From a virus (Duplodnaviria > Heunggongvirae > Uroviricota > Caudoviricetes): a stretch of DNA of 14,138 nt. The notes beneath the pieces are model-generated. The model searched no databases. It was not told the DNA's origin and worked only from the letters and a program-made list of their open reading frames with translations. This document shows, in pieces, positions 1-7,684 of the stretch. The stretch lies in the IMG/VR virus record IMGVR_UViG_2690316152_000014; one strand, 5' to 3'. Both the position numbers and the translations under genes were made by a program. Position 1 is the stretch's first letter; every line of letters begins with the position of its first letter.

Positions 1-387
1 ATGTTCAATATCATGATTCGTAAATTTGGTGAGATGACTTTCGAGAAAGCTGGTGTTGCTCGTACCGAAGAAGAAGCAATGGCCTTAGTTCTGGTAGCAC
101 TGAGATCATCACCTGAGATTATCGACGCTGAATATGTAGCCGCAGAAGGTGAGATTAAAGAGATTAAAGCGGTGGCTAAGGAATTAGGTGTTAAAGGTTT
201 CCGTAAGCTGAGATTGAATCGTGAGACTTATGTAATCGGTAAACAGGGGCAATATATGGATGAGAATAGCATAATTGTTCTACTGAATAAGATTACCCGC
301 TACGGTTGGAAGATTGAGCAATATAAAACGTGTTTCGAATTATACGAAAAAGGTTTGCTGGATACTCTGACCATCGTTCGCGCTTAA
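1..387 (+). CDS. hypothetical protein (128 aa); may be 5'-partial because the ORF begins at the window edge
   Basis: Open frame from position 1 to a TAA stop at 385-387, followed by a hairpin terminator. No motif recognised. Confidence 0.5.
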   Translation: MFNIMIRKFGEMTFEKAGVARTEEEAMALVLVALRSSPEIIDAEYVAAEGEIKEIKAVAKELGVKGFRKLRLNRETYVIGKQGQYMDENSIIVLLNKITRYGWKIEQYKTCFELYEKGLLDTLTIVRA

Positions 388-400
388 TTAATTTCTAATT

Positions 401-427
401 TGGTGGGTGCAATTCCCACCGCTTTTT
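401..427 (+). terminator. Rho-independent terminator candidate
   Basis: Stem GGTGGG/CCCACC with a 7-nt loop, followed by GCTTTTT, directly after the stop of the first ORF. Confidence 0.5.
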
Positions 428-445
428 AAACTAGGAGAATCAAAC

Positions 446-526
446 ATGTTAGCTTTTATCTCATTCGTGGGAGGTAGTCTCACAACTATGATTAGTCTTT
501 CTTATATTGTCGTTAGTATGGGGTGA
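446..526 (+). CDS. small hydrophobic peptide (26 aa, MLAFISFVGGSLTTMISLSYIVVSMG), not in the ORF track
   Basis: ATG at 446 preceded by AGGAG (433-437) at about 8 nt spacing. Entirely hydrophobic, consistent with a single transmembrane helix. TGA stop at 524-526. Confidence 0.3.
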   Translation: MLAFISFVGGSLTTMISLSYIVVSMG

Positions 527-529
527 GCA

Positions 530-655
530 ATGAAACAATTTCATGATGGCATTTCATCTAAGACATTCAAGAAAGAATATAGCGGCTTGCGTATTGACTG
601 GATGGATTTGATTGGCGCGGTTGTGTTTGGTCTGATTATTAGCATCAACTTTTAA
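530..655 (+). CDS. small membrane peptide (41 aa, MKQFHDGISSKTFKKEYSGLRIDWMDLIGAVVFGLIISINF), not in the ORF track
   Basis: ATG at 530 lies 3 nt after the stop of the preceding mini-ORF and is preceded by GGGGTGAG. Polar N-terminus and hydrophobic C-terminal helix. TAA at 653-655. Confidence 0.3.
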   Translation: MKQFHDGISSKTFKKEYSGLRIDWMDLIGAVVFGLIISINF

Positions 656-671
656 CGATATAAATATATCG
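656..671. promoter_or_regulatory. dyad-symmetric element CGATATA-AA-TATATCG containing TATAAATA; candidate operator or -10 region
   Basis: Inverted repeat with 7-bp arms read directly from the sequence, about 30 bp upstream of the ATG at 701. Confidence 0.3.
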
Positions 672-700
672 TAATTCAAACAACAAGAGGAAATTCTACT

Positions 701-1114
701 ATGAAAAAGATTATCGCTGGTATCGTTCTTGCTATGGGTTTGGTTGGTACTGCTAATGCTAATACCTATTATGTGTGTAATTCCTACTTCGAACATAAAG
801 GAGATGATACACGCTACCTGAGTGATGGCGACCGTTATTATCATGCACCGTCTGGAAAATACCGTGGTTTTATCGGTGTAAAGGTTCGAGTGAATGATGA
901 TAATAGTCAATTTGCTTTCAACGATCCGGTATTTGATAGAACAATCAAAAGCCCGAAACTGAAAGAAGATAAGAACGAGAAAGAAGAATATTATGGTTCC
1001 GAAGATGGTAAGTCTTACATCAAATATCTGCATTCTATAGATGGCGCTCCTATATTTGATGTTAAAAAAGGTGATACATCTTATACCCTGATTAGCTGCC
1101 GTGAAATTCTTTAA
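701..1114 (+). CDS. secreted/periplasmic protein of unknown function, with a cleavable signal peptide
   Basis: N-terminus MKKIIAGIVLAMGLVGTANA has an n-h-c signal-peptide layout and an A-N-A signal peptidase I site, with no lipobox. RBS AAGAGGA upstream. Two Cys in the mature part (CNSY and ISCREIL). Confidence 0.7.
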   Translation: MKKIIAGIVLAMGLVGTANANTYYVCNSYFEHKGDDTRYLSDGDRYYHAPSGKYRGFIGVKVRVNDDNSQFAFNDPVFDRTIKSPKLKEDKNEKEEYYGSEDGKSYIKYLHSIDGAPIFDVKKGDTSYTLISCREIL

Positions 1115-1129
1115 TCTTTAATCACCTAG

Positions 1130-1166
1130 CCCCTATCGTTATAATACACGGTAGGGGCGTTTTTGT
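1130..1166 (+). terminator. Rho-independent terminator candidate (loop holds a TATAAT hexamer)
   Basis: Stem CCCCTATCG/CGGTAGGGG (one G-U pair), 10-nt loop TTATAATACA, then CGTTTTTGTTT. Confidence 0.5.
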
Positions 1167-1177
1167 TTGGAAATGGT

Positions 1178-2860
1178 ATGAAAACTAAACTGTATTCGTA
1201 TATTCGCTTCTCTTCCATGAAGCAAGCAGATGGTAGTTCATTTGAACGCCAGAAGAGAACAGCGAAAGAGATAGCCGCAAAATATGATCTTGAGCTAGTT
1301 ACTTCCTATCAAGATTTCGGTGTATCTGCATTCAAAGGAGCTAACAGTAAAACAGGTGCATTATCTCGTTTTCTGGATGAGATTGGTCGATCCGTTCCGG
1401 TTGGTAGCTGGCTGGTGGTGGAAAACTTAGACCGTATCTCCCGTCAATCTGTTATTGAAGCTCAAGAGCTATTCCTTTCAATCATCCGCAGGGGAATAAC
1501 AATTGTTACTGGTATGGATGGGAAGGTCTATAGCAAAGAATCGGTTAATGCTAATCCCATCGATTTACTATTGAGTGTAATGTTGTTTGCTCGTGCAAAT
1601 GAGGAAAGTCAGACTAAACGCAATCGCACTAACTCAAGCGCACTACTCAAGGTTAAAGCCCATCAGGAGAATCCACAAAATCCGGCAGTGGCAATCGAGG
1701 AAATTGGTCGCAATATATGGTGGGCTGATACTTCATCGGGTTATGTGCTTCCACATCCGGTGTATTTTCCTGTTATCAAGAAAATCGTTGAATTAAAACA
1801 GAATGGTTATTCTAATGGTCGGGTTCTTGATTATCTGAATGAAAGAATCACCCCGCCTAATTACACAACGAACAAAGATACCCCTAAGAAATGGGCGCGT
1901 TCTATGTTAGCCAGGATGTTCTCTAACCGCGCTTTGCTTGGTATCAAAGAGATAACCATTGAAGGTGTGACATATGAGTTAAAGGATTATTACCCACGAG
2001 TGATGGAAGATGCCGAGTTCTATCAACTCAAGAAGACTATAGGACTGAGGTCGTTTTCTTATCCCACTAAGTCTAGTCCTGTTATTACCCTGTTAAGTGG
2101 TGCTGGCTTGCTTCGATGTGGTCATTGTGGGGCAAGTATGGTTAAGAGAAGCGGAGCATCAAAAGAGAGATTAGCCCAATATCGTTATATGTGCGATGGC
2201 GCAGATAGCAGGAGGACTAATTGTGATCATCCAAATTGGGGCTTTCGTGGTGATCAACTGGATAAGGCTGTATTGCAATTGCTGGCTGATAAAATCTGGA
2301 TTGCTGAGGATAAGGCTAATCCGATCCCAGGTATGCAAGCCCAGATTGAAGACATTTCACGCAAGATTGATAACCTGATTAGTCTTTCTGCAATGACAGG
2401 AGCAACGAAGGAACTAGCCGATCAGATTACTACCCTGAATCATGAGCGTGAGACCATCTATAACCAGATTAAGGTAATAGAAGAGAACATGTATTCAGTT
2501 GATTCTCAAGGCTGGGAGAAGCTAGCACAATTTGATTTAGAGGATGTTTGCAGCGAGGAACGGTTAAAAGTTCGATTGAAGATTAAAGAAGCTGTTAAGT
2601 CTATAAATTGTTACAAGATTGATACCAATTATAATCATTTTTTAATGGAGTACATCGACGGGAAGACACAAAGGATAGTGATCGAGAGGTCACGCCGTAA
2701 CAGGAAAGGGAGAATTTTTGTAGACGTGAAGACTATCAATGATAGGCAGATTCTGGAGAGCAACGGGCTTGTTCTGCATCCATGTTTAGACATGCTGACA
2801 GATAAGAACTGGAAACCGGAGGAAGAAATACCAGGTCCATTACAGGAATTTGGAATTTAA
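1178..2860 (+). CDS. large serine recombinase (probable phage integrase)
   Basis: N-terminal resolvase-type catalytic motifs: YIRFSSMKQ (catalytic Ser), SFERQ, and LVVENLDRISR. C-terminal zinc-ribbon cysteines (LLRCGHCG ... YMCDG ... NCDH) followed by coiled-coil-like sequence. Start set to the ATG at 1178; the track's 1163 is a TTG. Confidence 0.88.
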   Translation: MKTKLYSYIRFSSMKQADGSSFERQKRTAKEIAAKYDLELVTSYQDFGVSAFKGANSKTGALSRFLDEIGRSVPVGSWLVVENLDRISRQSVIEAQELFLSIIRRGITIVTGMDGKVYSKESVNANPIDLLLSVMLFARANEESQTKRNRTNSSALLKVKAHQENPQNPAVAIEEIGRNIWWADTSSGYVLPHPVYFPVIKKIVELKQNGYSNGRVLDYLNERITPPNYTTNKDTPKKWARSMLARMFSNRALLGIKEITIEGVTYELKDYYPRVMEDAEFYQLKKTIGLRSFSYPTKSSPVITLLSGAGLLRCGHCGASMVKRSGASKERLAQYRYMCDGADSRRTNCDHPNWGFRGDQLDKAVLQLLADKIWIAEDKANPIPGMQAQIEDISRKIDNLISLSAMTGATKELADQITTLNHERETIYNQIKVIEENMYSVDSQGWEKLAQFDLEDVCSEERLKVRLKIKEAVKSINCYKIDTNYNHFLMEYIDGKTQRIVIERSRRNRKGRIFVDVKTINDRQILESNGLVLHPCLDMLTDKNWKPEEEIPGPLQEFGI

Positions 2861-2896
2861 GCGGCCTAAATCGCTGCATAACGAGATAAACGCTTT

Positions 2897-2917
2897 AAGG
2901 GGTACGTACCCCTTTTT
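2897..2917 (+). terminator. hairpin terminator / perfect 18-bp palindrome AAGGGGTACGTACCCCTT followed by T-run
   Basis: Perfect palindrome at 2897-2914 plus TTT, located 37 nt after the recombinase stop. Confidence 0.45.
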
Positions 2918-2929
2918 AATTTAATTGCG

Positions 2930-3925
2930 TTACGCGGCCTCTAAGGGGCTTAAATCAAGTTCTAGGTCTTCCGGTTCCAACTCGGCTAATGGCATTGAGT
3001 GCATCATAGCGAAATCACGTTCTATATCATCTTCGGTTATGTAGTCTTCTGGGTTGATTTCGAAATCAGCATCAAAATATATTGGTTCGGGCGAATTGTT
3101 ATAAATGTACTCCTGTATGAATTTTTTCACATCATCCATTTTGCTGATTGGTAAAGTTTCAGTATAACCACGAGACATTAATTTACGACTAATCCGCTTA
3201 CCTTTGATGTGTTTTTTGATGCCACTTTCTAAATCACCAGCTTTCCAGCCGCAATCAAACGTGTGTGAATATTCAAGGGATAATATTTCATCGGTGTATC
3301 TTTGAGTTTCATACATTCGACGTAGTGGATTTTTGCGCGTAGTTATACCAAATTTTAAAAATTTTTCTCCTACACGAAAAACATAAAAAATAACTGGTCG
3401 ATGTGTATCTTTGTTCATCAAAGCATGTTGTTTCCCGTTTGAAAGAGCAGTTATAGCGCCACGTATAAGAGGACAAGTTAAACTCCCCCGATTACGACTA
3501 CTAAACAAATCGGCTTTGTTGTATATTTTACCATGACAATTACATTTTAGTTTTAGATGGGTTGTTATTCCTCTGTATGGTTCGGCTAGCCCTAAAACAT
3601 CCCAGCCAATCTTATTAAAGAAATTGGTTGAAACTTGTATGTACTCATGTTCTGTATACATGCAAGGTTTCTTATATGTTGGGTGATGGTCTTTTCCTGT
3701 AAACTTACCCATTAAGACACGTTGTAATAAAGGAGTTTTAACTTTATCGCCAACTTTTATATAAACTTTTGTTCGCTGGAATGGCTTATGGATAGGTAGA
3801 ACGAATCCCCCATAAATCCATCCATTAGATTTACATTGGTCAACAACCATTGATTCATATTCAGATGGGCTTTTAGCCGTTGATTTTTTGATGAAAGGAA
3901 TATCTTTAGCAAAAACGGTTTTCAT
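2930..3925 (-). CDS. Cys-rich GIY-YIG-like (T5orf172-like) putative homing endonuclease, paralog A
   Basis: ATG at 3925 with GAGGA RBS. Segment VIFYVFRVGEKFLKFGITT resembles a GIY-x(10)-YIG signature. Cys/His clusters upstream (LKLKCNCHG, LTCPL). Acidic C-terminal tail. Clearly paralogous to the 5053-6090 protein (shared WIYGGFVLP/LIYHGFVMP, KFGIT/KYGIT, GYTET). Confidence 0.55.
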   Translation of the reverse strand: MKTVFAKDIPFIKKSTAKSPSEYESMVVDQCKSNGWIYGGFVLPIHKPFQRTKVYIKVGDKVKTPLLQRVLMGKFTGKDHHPTYKKPCMYTEHEYIQVSTNFFNKIGWDVLGLAEPYRGITTHLKLKCNCHGKIYNKADLFSSRNRGSLTCPLIRGAITALSNGKQHALMNKDTHRPVIFYVFRVGEKFLKFGITTRKNPLRRMYETQRYTDEILSLEYSHTFDCGWKAGDLESGIKKHIKGKRISRKLMSRGYTETLPISKMDDVKKFIQEYIYNNSPEPIYFDADFEINPEDYITEDDIERDFAMMHSMPLAELEPEDLELDLSPLEAA

Positions 3926-3996
3926 AATAGCGAATCCTCATAAATTAAATTCACTATTATTTATTAGTATTTTTCTTGATAATAAAGATTGTTATT

Positions 3997-4668
3997 ATGT
4001 GTGATATTAAAATTAGCTTCATCAATTATAGCCATGTGAAAATTGATTATTCTCCTTCCATTGCAATGGAATTGAGAGATTATTTTAGCTTTGAAGTGGA
4101 AGGAGCCAGATTTAGTCCCAGATACAAATATTCGGGCTGGGATGGTCGTATTAGACTTTTTACCTATGAAAATTTGATGCCTATTGGCTTAGTTCGAATG
4201 GTTAGCGTGTTTTCAAAAAATATGGGTTATAGTGTTTTGATAGACCCTAGACTTTTGGAGCGGGAAAATGTCGATGAAAAGGAAATCGAAAAATGGTGCA
4301 ATGTCCTAGAATTATATTCTGGTGCTAACAGAGTTACCCCGCACTGGTATCAATCAAAAGCAGTCTTTGAAGGTATTCATCATAAACGTAGAATGTTAGT
4401 TCTTCCTACGTCCGCTGGCAAATCTGCTATCGCTTGTATGTTATCTCGTTGGTACTTAGAGAACTACGAAGGCAAAGTGTTGATCATTGTCCCGACGACC
4501 TCGCTTGTTCTCCAGATGCGGGATGATTTTGTTGATTATCGCCAGTTTCCTTATGAAGCTATTCATACTATCATGAGCGGTACTAGTAAGCATGTAGGGG
4601 ATCGCCTGATTGTTGTCAGTACATGGCAATCCGCTTGTAAACAGCCTCGTGAATGGTTTAAACAATAA
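3997..4668 (+). CDS. uvsW: UvsW-like SF2 DNA helicase, N-terminal fragment (223 aa), stops just before motif II; likely a gene remnant
   Basis: Collinear with the T4 UvsW N-terminus as recalled from memory: N-terminal domain, PHWYQ, Walker A LPTSAGKS, YLENYEGKVLIIVPTT, and WQS..KQPREWF. The ORF stops immediately before the expected DECH box. Start set to ATG 3997 (the track's 3976 is TTG). Confidence 0.7.
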   Translation: MCDIKISFINYSHVKIDYSPSIAMELRDYFSFEVEGARFSPRYKYSGWDGRIRLFTYENLMPIGLVRMVSVFSKNMGYSVLIDPRLLERENVDEKEIEKWCNVLELYSGANRVTPHWYQSKAVFEGIHHKRRMLVLPTSAGKSAIACMLSRWYLENYEGKVLIIVPTTSLVLQMRDDFVDYRQFPYEAIHTIMSGTSKHVGDRLIVVSTWQSACKQPREWFKQ

Positions 4669-4697
4669 AAAAGCGCCTACTATGAGGCGCTTTAATT
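4669..4697. terminator. bidirectional hairpin terminator between convergent genes
   Basis: AAAAAAGCGCCT-ACTATG-AGGCGCTTTAATTTTA: GC-rich stem flanked by an A-run and a T-run, between the uvsW fragment stop and the peptidase stop. Confidence 0.55.
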
Positions 4698-5051
4698 TTA
4701 TCCATACCAGCGGGATTTAGTGGAACGGCTATCAATATGGGTAAAGGTTTTATATTTGCCTAAGCCATATTGATTAGGATATTTGCTATCTAGATACGCG
4801 TGAACAATATCAGGCGAGACACCTTTCACTACAATATCTGCGGCCTTGCCCGTGATATGAATCGAACGAGAAGCACCACCAACTTTCTTATTGTGTGCCG
4901 GACAACGGTTAGCACTGTTAATAACTACTGGTTTCCCGAAGTGTTCGCGTACATCCTCAAGAATTGCCAGTAATTCCGCGTCTACGGTATCTTGTCCGCA
5001 CTTTCCACATTTGCATTCAAATTCCTTGCGAGAAAAATGTTTGCTTAACAT
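4698..5051 (-). CDS. peptidase M15-family protein (zinc D-Ala-D-Ala carboxypeptidase-like); possible cell-wall hydrolase
   Basis: Motifs SANRCPAHNKKVGGASRSIH, GKAADI and FTHID fit the H...D...H zinc site of M15 peptidases. N-terminal CKCGKC cluster. Start is 1 nt after the stop of the upstream paralog-B gene, with a GGGGG SD. Confidence 0.6.
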   Translation of the reverse strand: MLSKHFSRKEFECKCGKCGQDTVDAELLAILEDVREHFGKPVVINSANRCPAHNKKVGGASRSIHITGKAADIVVKGVSPDIVHAYLDSKYPNQYGLGKYKTFTHIDSRSTKSRWYG

Positions 5052-5052
5052 A

Positions 5053-6090
5053 TTACCCCCTATATGTAATTTTATAGTTGTTGGAGTTTTTACAAAAATC
5101 CATTGCCATTTTTCTAATCTGCGCTTCTTTGGTTATGTCACATGTTTCTGTATATCCGTCTGGGATTAGTTCTTTTGGTGCAGCGTGACTTCCTATGTTA
5201 TGTTTTACGGAATATTCTAGGTCATTGGCAACTTTTCCGTCACCGAAAGTTATATACCACAATAACTTGTGAGATAATCCTGACTCTCTTGATTGTTGTG
5301 TGATTCTCTTTTGTGGGTTTAGGTGATTTGTTATTCCATATTTGATATAATCGCCTACTTGCTGGACATAGAAAACACCTGGTTTACTTTTGTTATACCC
5401 ACTCTTAGAACAGCACGGACAACCATCGTTTTCGTAAACCAAACCATACGCAACAATAGTATCTGATATATGGCCTTTTTCACACTTTAGTTTTAGTTTT
5501 GACATAGCCAAAATTGGGGATTTAGGTCGTTTTATTAATTTGAGTCTCTTTTCTTTGCACCCGTCTTCAATTAATCCCAACCATTCGTCGTCTGTGTGCT
5601 TTCTCTTATTAATTCCTCTCTTAATTGACCCACAATGACGGCACCCAGCATCATTGTTTATGATTCTTGTGATTATCGTTTCGTATGTGGTGTTACAACA
5701 AGTGCATTTATATGATGCCTTTGTATCAAGCCCTTTATATTCTTCCAACAAACCAACTAAAACCATCTCTTTACGTTCTAATACATTGCTTGCTTTGGTG
5801 AGAATGGTTTCTTCGTCTCTATTATTTTTCTTTGGTAGTTTTAAAGAATCTCTATAACATTCAATACAAGCACCTTGTTTCTTAAGGGATTTGAATACTA
5901 TCGTTCTTGATGTGTTGTGTTTTTTGCAAGTTACATAAACGTGTGTATATTGACCTTTCCACGGCATGACGAAGCCATGATAAATCAAACCTAATTCACC
6001 ACATCGTTTAATTGCAATTGTTTCATAGTCGTGCGGAGTTTTTCTTTTGAATCCGGTGTAATCGATATATTCAGCAAATAAAACTTCCAT
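5053..6090 (-). CDS. Cys-rich GIY-YIG-like (T5orf172-like) putative homing endonuclease, paralog B
   Basis: Three Cys-rich modules (KRCG..VTCKKH..CIEC; KCTCC..GCRHCG; LKCEKGH..GCPCC), then GVFYVQQVGDYIKYGIT (GIY-YIG-like) and DGYTET. GGGGGA SD upstream of ATG 6090. Confidence 0.55.
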   Translation of the reverse strand: MEVLFAEYIDYTGFKRKTPHDYETIAIKRCGELGLIYHGFVMPWKGQYTHVYVTCKKHNTSRTIVFKSLKKQGACIECYRDSLKLPKKNNRDEETILTKASNVLERKEMVLVGLLEEYKGLDTKASYKCTCCNTTYETIITRIINNDAGCRHCGSIKRGINKRKHTDDEWLGLIEDGCKEKRLKLIKRPKSPILAMSKLKLKCEKGHISDTIVAYGLVYENDGCPCCSKSGYNKSKPGVFYVQQVGDYIKYGITNHLNPQKRITQQSRESGLSHKLLWYITFGDGKVANDLEYSVKHNIGSHAAPKELIPDGYTETCDITKEAQIRKMAMDFCKNSNNYKITYRG

Positions 6091-7214: not shown

Positions 7215-7385
7215 TTACCCCCCTAATAACGAAAAGACCCCCGCTAGTGTCCTGAGTAATTGTTCATCCACGGTCATAGCCGGGAGTTCAAGCCCAAAGG
7301 ACGTAAGCAGAGGTCTAATAGCTACGTTATAAGTGAGGGCGATAATCAAGAGATAACCAAAATATTTCTTAAGTCTATTCTTCAT
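7215..7385 (-). CDS. small membrane protein (56 aa, MKNRLKKYFGYLLIIALTYNVAIRPLLTSFGLELPAMTVDEQLLRTLAGVFSLLGG), not in the ORF track
   Basis: ATG at 7385 preceded by GGGGTG at about 6 nt. Hydrophobic helix YFGYLLIIALTY. Ends GGG-GGG-TAA, and that stop is coupled to the start of the 227-aa gene. Confidence 0.4.
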   Translation of the reverse strand: MKNRLKKYFGYLLIIALTYNVAIRPLLTSFGLELPAMTVDEQLLRTLAGVFSLLGG

Positions 7386-7405: not shown

Positions 7406-7684
7406 TTATTTTTGTTTGAGTATGTCGAGAACTTGGTCAAATTTAGCATCCATCGCAACCACTTTTTTCTCTATGCCGTGTAGTGTTTGTTCCATTTGGT
7501 AAACACGTTCAGCAATCTGAGTATGGTTGTTCTGCATCGTCTCAAACTTCTGGTTTAACAATGCGTCGCTGGATTCCAATTTAGATAACCTATTTTCAGT
7601 TGCTATTTGATTTCGGTGAAGTCTCCAAAGACCACCACAAATTAAGGCGATAACACCGATACCGCCATATATAATTTCAGTCAT
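7406..7684 (-). CDS. membrane-anchored coiled-coil protein (92 aa); function unknown
   Basis: N-terminal helix IIYGGIGVIALICGGLW, then heptad-like sequence rich in Q/E/K/L. GGGGGCG SD 4 nt upstream of ATG 7684. Confidence 0.55.
   Translation of the reverse strand: MTEIIYGGIGVIALICGGLWRLHRNQIATENRLSKLESSDALLNQKFETMQNNHTQIAERVYQMEQTLHGIEKKVVAMDAKFDQVLDILKQK

Follow-up and report, generated by a model that had tools for sequence, protein, structure and literature searches.

Two very small genes, ORF1 and ORF2 (open reading frames, ORFs, of 26 and 41 codons), lie in tandem near the left end of the IMG/VR virus record IMGVR_UViG_2690316152_000014, a stretch of 14,138 nucleotides from a virus of the class Caudoviricetes that was analysed at its full length and is called here the window. 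Comparative genomics alone establishes both as genes under selection, since their frames, lengths and motifs persist where synonymous change is saturated and nonsynonymous differences remain rarer than synonymous ones. On this comparative basis, it is very probable that ORF1 and ORF2 are both real protein-coding genes. An earlier note, made from the sequence of the window alone, had pointed out a tandem pair of mini-ORFs for hydrophobic peptides, and the conservation observed in relatives supports the view that they are genuine genes. As for their role, the reading that we favour, with moderate confidence, is that two co-translated small inner-membrane proteins form the constant core of a moron-like accessory unit, placed beside the integrase gene of an Escherichia coli prophage.

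The two ORFs and their predicted products

The upstream ORF stops at position 387 and the next long ORF begins at position 701, leaving a gap of 313 nt. The features found inside this gap that belong to the pair are the following:

433-437, + strand, Shine-Dalgarno (SD) sequence AGGAG of ORF1, 8 nt 5' of the ATG at 446; GGAG is kept in close relatives
446-526, + strand, ORF1, 26 codons, MLAFISFVGGSLTTMISLSYIVVSMG, without any charged residue, grand average of hydropathy (GRAVY) 1.64
520-527, + strand, G-rich SD-like sequence GGGGTGAG of ORF2, overlapping the 3' end of ORF1
530-655, + strand, ORF2, 41 codons, MKQFHDGISSKTFKKEYSGLRIDWMDLIGAVVFGLIISINF

The spacer between the TGA of ORF1 and the ATG of ORF2 at 530 measures 3 nt (527-529). 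The description of the locus given in the earlier note, namely the 313-bp gap, the AGGAG-led hydrophobic 26-codon ORF, the 3-nt spacer and the 41-codon ORF with a hydrophobic C-terminal helix, was confirmed in the sequence in every detail. The SD-like sequence of ORF2, which overlaps the end of ORF1, fits translational coupling of the two genes; in relatives, the ORF1/ORF2 junction consists of either an ATGA overlap or an AGGAG.

Such a hydropathy is rare among the short frames of the window: among its 68 ATG-initiated ORFs of 20-45 aa, only three have a GRAVY above 1.5, and ORF1 is one of them. ORF1 is a predicted inner-membrane peptide, consisting of a single uncharged transmembrane helix. 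In ORF2, the last 15 residues have a mean hydropathy of 2.42, and AlphaFold2, applied to nine homologues, placed a helix at residues 24-40, with a predicted local distance difference test (pLDDT) score of about 82-94, preceded by an N-terminus of low confidence. ORF2 is therefore predicted to be a tail-anchored membrane peptide, made of a polar N-terminus, a variable linker and a C-terminal transmembrane helix. Since the N-terminus is basic, it should face the cytoplasm according to the positive-inside rule.

The earlier note had called the two ORFs unannotated and easily missed by ORF callers. The second statement holds. Proteins shorter than 50 residues are systematically missed by annotation: ORF1 is below the usual gene-caller cut-off and the pair is usually missed in genomes. 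The first one needs to be qualified. A minority of the E. coli genomes in RefSeq do list ORF2, under the name of hypothetical protein (e.g. WP_265343599.1 and WP_261290126.1), and the exact sequence of ORF1 occurs once, in one JGI/IMG record.

Two further observations concern these frames. A 22-codon ORF at 543-611 (+ strand), in the +1 frame within ORF2 (MMAFHLRHSRKNI...), is open in many or most relatives; its sequence merely tracks the conserved codons of ORF2, and we rejected it as a gene since it is probably a by-product. In the 747-nt ENA contig P0006, the TGA stop codon of ORF1 is changed into TGG, which gives a 68-aa ORF1-ORF2 fusion; a sequencing error is possible.

Conservation and selection

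Close relatives were collected from IMG/VR (22 loci via the 128-aa gene that precedes the pair and 26 via ORF2) and from E. coli records. They are 94-97% identical and, a single contig apart, neither frame is disrupted in them; the changes in ORF1 amount to 3 synonymous and 2 conservative ones, and ORF2 carries an in-frame 3-nt deletion in six loci. Because the divergence is so low, this conservation is suggestive but weak.

More distant homologues were obtained from protein collections. A search of 5.8 billion proteins gave 11 ORF2-like clusters, down to 58% identity, and an exhaustive HMMER search of 1.84 billion representatives gave only 9 clusters. Eight of the latter are 39-41 aa long; the ninth is a 90-aa call from an upstream GTG, whose C-terminal part is a 39-aa ORF2 homologue. 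The ORF2 homologues of all 9 clusters start with M[KR]QFH.GISSKT[FY]. The family is characterised by the N-terminal motif M[KR]QFH.GISSKTF, with the invariant peptide MKQFHDGISSKTFKK, and by SIN[FI] at the end of the helix.

The genomic context was examined for 12 distant ORF2 clusters. In 11 of them, the ORF2 homologue lies on the same strand as, and 5' of, a gene for a serine recombinase of 557-571 aa, at a prophage end in ycdX (two of these contexts are on short contigs that show the recombinase only); the twelfth contig stops short of the recombinase position. The host DNA that flanks the distant loci is that of E. coli in some cases. At locus L061, the flanking DNA is only about 70% identical to E. 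coli and therefore indicates a host of another genus, so that the prophage family is present in at least one other enterobacterial genus.

Every distant locus contains, 5' of ORF2, a hydrophobic ORF of 25-27 codons with the ORF1 motif (examples are MSVLISFAASTLLTIISFVYLVVNAV, MAALLSFASAVVITILSYVYVVVSAV, MNLLISFVCSVFLAILSSVYIVVVAVG and MKHLITFILSNLITVLIFTYFVVVVA; two further ones have a GTG start). The motif of this family of 25-27 aa peptides is M..L[IL]SF[AV]...S.VY.VV. An alignment of six sequences showed that Ser6 and Phe7 are near-invariant, and that Tyr20 and Val22-Val23 are invariant. The ORF1 homologues keep start and stop positions, length and the ISF...Y.VV motif at about 51-72% nucleotide identity, and the recurrence of ORF1 and ORF2 together reaches down to about 51-60%. 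In the census of all loci, we counted 12 distinct ORF1 and 19 distinct ORF2 sequences, with all frames open. ORF1 was found 5' of ORF2 on every ORF2-bearing contig examined, the one exception being locus L013, which has a frameshifted, still open variant.

Substitutions were counted by the Nei-Gojobori method. For ORF2, the ratio of nonsynonymous to synonymous substitution rates (dN/dS) was 0.11-0.31, with dS ranging from 0.65 to saturation. For ORF1, the proportion of nonsynonymous differences (pN) was 0.18-0.40, as compared to a proportion of synonymous differences (pS) of 0.46-0.80, and dN/dS was 0.14-0.6. The protein encoded by the first 15 codons of ORF2 is identical between clades despite a pS of 0.55-0.68, and one Ser codon is switched between TCT and AGC. 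The two alternative frames of the ORF1 homologues are usually interrupted by stops. Frames, lengths and motifs that persist at saturated synonymous change, together with pN lower than pS, indicate that both genes are under purifying selection. The loss of the frames in homologous regions, which had been named in the earlier note as the outcome that would speak against the genes, was clearly not what we observed.

Family, RNA and literature searches

Both peptides and their variants were compared with Pfam, NCBIfam, PHROGs and PADLOC at an expectation value (E) of 10 or lower, and no family was recovered. A SecE transmembrane match at E 0.03 in the family scans was discarded as meaningless, and a suspected resemblance of ORF1 to KdpF was abandoned because the Pfam scan lent it no support. 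Profile searches of Protein Data Bank sequences with the peptides gave no match. When both strands of region 300-1250 were scanned against Rfam, no known family came near its gathering score, and hence no antitoxin small RNA family was recovered. The sole promoter-like site on the minus strand sits in the palindrome at the cargo junction (described below), without a terminator. A literature search returned no paper containing the peptide sequences and nothing relevant on prophages in hicB or ycdX. ORF1 and ORF2 are two undescribed micro-protein families of narrow distribution, although of a known general kind, that of small hydrophobic prophage peptides in accessory units.

Neighbouring genes and signals of the accessory unit

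Around the pair, the window contains the following features:

1-387, + strand, upstream 128-aa gene, assigned to the same operon, phrog_14908 (unknown function)
401-428 (hairpin 401-421), + strand, intrinsic terminator hairpin with T-run, directly 5' of ORF1; -11.4 kcal/mol, z -2.8
655-672, no strand, perfect 18-bp palindrome ACGATATAAATATATCGT at the ORF2/cargo junction; -5.7 kcal/mol, z -3.4
701-1114, + strand, variable cargo gene for a 137-aa secreted protein with a signal peptide and 2 Cys
1129-1158, + strand, strong intrinsic terminator with T-run that ends the accessory operon; -20.2 kcal/mol, z -4.3
1178-2860, + strand, large serine recombinase (prophage integrase), identified in the PHROG scan

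Within an accessory operon whose gene content is shuffled, ORF1 and ORF2 alone are constant. Most of the cargo around them is directed to the envelope, as in the case of the secreted proteins of 75-139 aa, the lipoprotein and the OmpW-like outer-membrane proteins. The upstream position is occupied by a gene of 89-91 aa, 128/145 aa or 69-71 aa, by a lipoprotein gene or by a gene for an OmpW-like outer-membrane protein of 245-310 aa. The 128-aa protein of the window is itself a fusion of two modules that relatives carry as separate small genes: its N-terminal part resembles a 62-aa gene located between ORF1 and ORF2 in L026, L064 and L099 (32% identity, E 2e-6), and its C-terminal part an 80-aa gene in L058 and L063 (58% identity, E 2e-30). 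The cargo found between ORF1 and ORF2 in relatives encodes either this 62-aa cytoplasmic protein or a secreted protein of 75-80 aa. On the 3' side of ORF2, the cargo encodes a secreted protein of 77, 81 or 132-139 aa, a 113-aa anchored protein or a 243-aa protein, or is missing. The 137-aa cargo of the window is predicted to fold into a small 8-stranded beta-barrel; at this position relatives have other secreted proteins or nothing.

The linkage to the integrase gene is strict. A close relative of the integrase was present on 26/26 IMG/VR contigs carrying ORF2 and, conversely, ORF2 was present on all 26 IMG/VR contigs that have a close integrase relative together with upstream sequence. Where integrases of 33-35% identity use the same ycdX site, their genes adjoin the attachment site and no such operon is present. 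One lineage has therefore acquired the operon as an accessory, and recombination as such does not depend on it.

The terminator that precedes the integrase gene is present in every locus. Its loop in the window holds TATAAT, a possible -10 element for the integrase gene, and the integrase-proximal site in relatives reads TTGAGT-17-TATAAT and TTAATA-16-TATAAT. The hairpin 5' of ORF1 has a similar loop: TGCAAT (TGTAAT in many relatives) is a -10-like hexamer, and the stem at 401-421 is preserved through C/T and G/A changes in L013 and L055. At such hairpins, transcripts coming from upstream would terminate, while a new transcript could begin inside the hairpin itself.

The simplest arrangement was found at locus L101, where the unit consists of a promoter-like TTGACC-17-TATAGT (38 nt 5' of ORF1), ORF1, ORF2, the terminator and the integrase gene. 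L064 has a promoter-like TTGCAA-17-TATTAT between a terminator and ORF1. Both promoters are identified as matches to the sigma-70 consensus only. In the lineages inserted in ycdX, the gene junctions are ATGA overlaps, as in L025, where the order is upstream gene, ORF1, cargo, ORF2; such overlaps are the classic signature of translational coupling to adjoining genes. The predicted fold of the mRNA between 425 and 545 is not unusually structured (z -0.36) and leaves the SD of ORF1 unpaired.

The ribosome-binding stretch GGAGAATCAAACATG (GGAGAATCAAA(C)ATG) precedes ORF1 in the window (430-448) and in L059, and precedes ORF2 in L101 (555-575), L055 (3985-4003) and L013; the sharing of this stretch by different ORFs points to cassette exchange by recombination at that site. 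The 655-672 palindrome is found only where cargo follows ORF2 and is missing where ORF2 abuts the terminator. Its symmetry is kept by paired changes in L058 (CGTTATAAATATAACG), and the palindrome may act as an operator or RNA hairpin, or mark a cassette junction.

The host prophage and its relatives

The DNA of the window comes from an E. coli siphovirus prophage, of which it forms the left arm. The PHROG scan identified the large serine recombinase gene on the + strand, and tail-fibre, distal-tail, tape-measure and endonuclease-like genes on the minus strand. The stretch 380-720 matches 58 of 5,426 complete E. coli genomes (about 1%), and every match is chromosomal. Lysogens with this prophage include E. 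coli EC416 and E. coli MEI003 (NZ_CP071263). In EC416 (L060, NZ_AP027404.1), the prophage measures about 36 kb and interrupts hicB, an antitoxin gene. Starting from the 3' fragment of hicB, its order is a 90-aa gene, a 145-aa gene, the mini-ORF gap, the 137-aa gene and the recombinase gene, followed, on the other strand, by endolysin, tail, head and terminase genes, and then by early genes, an LprI-family lysozyme-inhibitor gene at the opposite prophage end and the 5' fragment of hicB. The L060 junctions are located at 141-260 and 36206-36514, and the right one retains the hicA toxin gene and the N-terminal part of hicB. The hicB insertion of the window prophage was made by the large serine recombinase; a sister lineage with a related recombinase uses ycdX as insertion site instead of hicB.

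When window 1-1200 was compared with a phage collection by megablast and blastn, no match was obtained, and a tblastn search of the same collection with ORF2 gave nothing meaningful. Relatives of the integrase among isolated phages are only about 30% identical. These searches therefore provided no cultured relative with an informative annotation. Species-representative genomes, scanned with the ORF2 alignment and with the integrase, yielded no relative.

Some differences among prophage copies were observed away from the pair. With respect to the EC416 prophage, window 2930-6090 contains additional DNA surrounding the endolysin gene, which includes a 331-aa minus-strand gene adjoining the integrase gene, the truncated N-terminus of a UvsW-like helicase (3976-4668, + strand) and a 345-aa HNH-endonuclease-like gene (5053-6090, minus strand) between the endolysin gene and a 115-aa gene. 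This looks like a mosaic rearrangement or a homing-endonuclease insertion. In L103 (E. coli PSJ-07, NZ_AP027619.1), an IS1 at 2568-3321 takes the place of ORF1, ORF2, the cargo, the integrase gene and part of the endolysin gene; L103 is a decaying, locked-in prophage copy.

In the late operon of the window, a 92-aa gene (7406-7684, minus strand) encodes an N-terminal membrane helix and a coiled coil. Directly after it lies a 56-aa hydrophobic ORF (7215-7385, minus strand, MKNRLKKYFGYLLIIALTYNVAI...) with the ribosome-binding site GGGGTGA, which is annotated in E. coli PSJ-07 (WP_157924515.1) and not in EC416. These two are likely to be holin or lysis membrane proteins.

Proposed role of the pair and alternative explanations

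Since no homology was found anywhere, the mechanism has to be deduced from the anatomy of the locus. We consider it probable, from the signals described above, that the pair forms an autonomously expressed accessory unit. This unit, running from a sigma-70-type promoter to an intrinsic terminator, would belong to a lineage of Enterobacterales siphovirus prophages that occupy hicB or ycdX, where it lies with the left attachment site on one side and the serine-integrase gene on the other, and would be expressed by the host RNA polymerase in the lysogen. The helices of ORF1 and ORF2 may act together in the inner membrane, where the conserved cytoplasmic peptide of ORF2 could hold or block a conserved partner. 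In fact, a specific partner, cytoplasmic or membrane-proximal, is suggested by the N-terminal 15-mer of ORF2, since conservation there is far stricter than in the helix. The outcome would be superinfection exclusion, defence or envelope modulation, and not lysis or self-poisoning.

Such an outcome is favoured by the setting beside the attachment site and the integrase gene which, together with the envelope-directed neighbours, resembles lysogenic-conversion and exclusion regions. Moreover, a moron-like unit with good ribosome-binding sites, ATGA coupling and envelope-directed cargo speaks for a prophage-expressed role of accessory or exclusion type. Of the roles suggested in the earlier note (toxin, holin-like or exclusion factor), the membrane-type character of the peptides stands and the context favours the exclusion or accessory one, whereas toxin and holin appear less likely. 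That exclusion or defence is the actual function of the pair is nevertheless put forward only tentatively.

Several observations weigh against the accessory-unit reading. No promoter at the scan threshold was found between the 401-421 terminator and ORF1 in the window and in EC416; the only candidates in the window are weak and overlap the hairpin loop. Without a convincing promoter, the transcription of ORF1 in the window must use read-through or one of these weak hairpin-overlapping promoters. Of the three regions scanned for promoters, two had no more promoter-like matches than shuffled sequences would lead one to expect. The pair is constant across the lineage, whereas true morons vary, and this suits a core phage function better. 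Finally, the Pfam, NCBIfam, PHROG and PADLOC scans revealed no homology to any exclusion or defence protein, and an exclusion or defence role is suggested by position and neighbours only.

The pair could alternatively be a lineage-defining minimal two-peptide membrane device and not a dispensable moron, a version that we regard as possible but rather doubtful. It might be a new exclusion or DNA-entry block, composed of a 26-aa helix and a 41-aa tail-anchored adaptor, or else a membrane tether, in which the invariant 15-residue cytoplasmic peptide would sequester a host or phage factor that controls lysogeny.

It is unlikely that one or both peptides are membrane-damaging toxins, whose derepression would depolarise the inner membrane as part of an abortive-infection or type I toxin-antitoxin-like module. 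With 26 and 41 aa, one hydrophobic helix each and a prophage site, they resemble Hok, Ldr, TisB, ShoB and Ibs-type toxins, and the lack of any charged residue in ORF1 agrees with such an activity. However, neither a toxin family (Pfam and NCBIfam, E of 10 or lower) nor an Rfam antitoxin small RNA was matched, and the ORF1-ORF2 mRNA is not unusually structured, with the SD of ORF1 unpaired in the predicted fold. Good SD sequences, ATGA coupling to ordinary neighbours and near-consensus promoters in relatives would be a lethal arrangement for a potent toxin without an antidote. Furthermore, the best-conserved part of ORF2 is the polar N-terminus and not the helix.

An assignment of the pair to lysis, where it would act with the cytoplasmic M15-type endolysin either as a lysis regulator or as a minimal holin/antiholin, is improbable in view of its location: it lies on the opposite strand, in another transcription unit, with the integrase gene between it and the late operon, and shares its own operon with secreted cargo genes and a sigma-70-like promoter. 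The late operon has membrane proteins of its own just 5' of the endolysin gene, namely the 92-aa and 56-aa products described above, and both ORF1 and ORF2 are shorter than any holin known to us. These points outweigh, in our opinion, the facts that the endolysin (4698-5051, minus strand) has no signal peptide, that the annotation of the complete EC416 prophage lists no canonical multi-helix holin and that the pair shows, within the lineage, the constancy expected of a core function.

The strict linkage to the recombinase would be explained if the peptides served the integrase as a recombination directionality factor or by regulating integration and excision. Serine integrases often have a small directionality factor encoded beside them, and ORF2 lies only 40-70 nt 5' of the integrase gene where cargo is absent, besides being present on all 26 IMG/VR contigs mentioned above. 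Yet in every locus ORF2 and the integrase gene have a strong terminator between them, the transmembrane end of ORF2 and the entirely hydrophobic ORF1 are unlike soluble DNA- or integrase-binding factors, and the integrases of 33-35% identity at the same ycdX site do without these genes; a service to the integrase is therefore very improbable.

That the frames are chance ORFs in a conserved non-coding region, such as an RNA element or a recombination junction, is hardly credible: although intact frames mean little among close relatives that are 94-97% identical, and T-rich sequence encodes hydrophobic residues in several of its frames (L013, in spite of its frameshift, still has an open, hydrophobic variant), both genes keep their frames, lengths and motifs in lineages whose synonymous sites are saturated, with pN well below pS, the order of the pair is kept while other genes are inserted between ORF1 and ORF2, and neither an Rfam match nor an excess of RNA structure was found.

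The comparison provides two new and experimentally tractable micro-protein families, together with the hypothesis of a prophage-expressed membrane module with a conserved cytoplasmic docking peptide. If the pair were indeed a minimal exclusion or defence device, it would be among the smallest known; otherwise, it is still a clean example of validated small prophage genes.

Comparison with known systems

Morons are autonomous promoter-gene-terminator units, as defined for HK97 and HK022 and reviewed in 'The moron comes of age' (PMC3594210). The pair is similar in that its unit is bounded by a candidate sigma-70-like promoter (in L101 and L064) and an intrinsic terminator, lies beside the attachment site and the integrase gene among shuffled envelope-directed neighbours, and is absent from distant integrase relatives. 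It differs in that both peptides are constant in the whole lineage and not sporadic, have no clear promoter in the window, and are only presumed to be expressed from the prophage.

HK97 gp15 and P22 SieA are described as small inner-membrane superinfection-exclusion proteins of temperate phages (PMC10883804 and the review PMC11436027). Similarly, the pair is predicted to be located in the inner membrane and belongs to a siphovirus prophage region that is plausibly expressed in the lysogen and has envelope-directed neighbours. Unlike gp15 and SieA, to which it has no sequence similarity, the pair is made of two genes and its products are much smaller (26 and 41 aa).

The type I toxins of enterobacteria (Hok, Ldr, TisB, ShoB, Ibs, DinQ) are hydrophobic single-helix peptides of 19-50 aa that are often carried by prophages and often overlooked in genome annotation. 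ORF1 and ORF2 are likewise short, hydrophobic, single-helix, prophage-borne and often unannotated. They are distinguished from these toxins by the lack of an Rfam antisense RNA match and of any family match, by an unstructured leader, by their operonic and coupled arrangement and by the conserved polar N-terminus of ORF2.

Finally, inner-membrane mini-proteins of 25-50 aa with a single helix, such as MgrB, AcrZ, MgtS, KdpF, CydX and Listeria Prli42, have regulatory or tethering functions. ORF1 and ORF2 differ from them in being phage-encoded and in having no Pfam or NCBIfam family match. The functional analogy lies in the architecture of ORF2: a soluble segment, short and conserved, adjoins a membrane anchor, an arrangement that suggests the binding or tethering of a specific partner.

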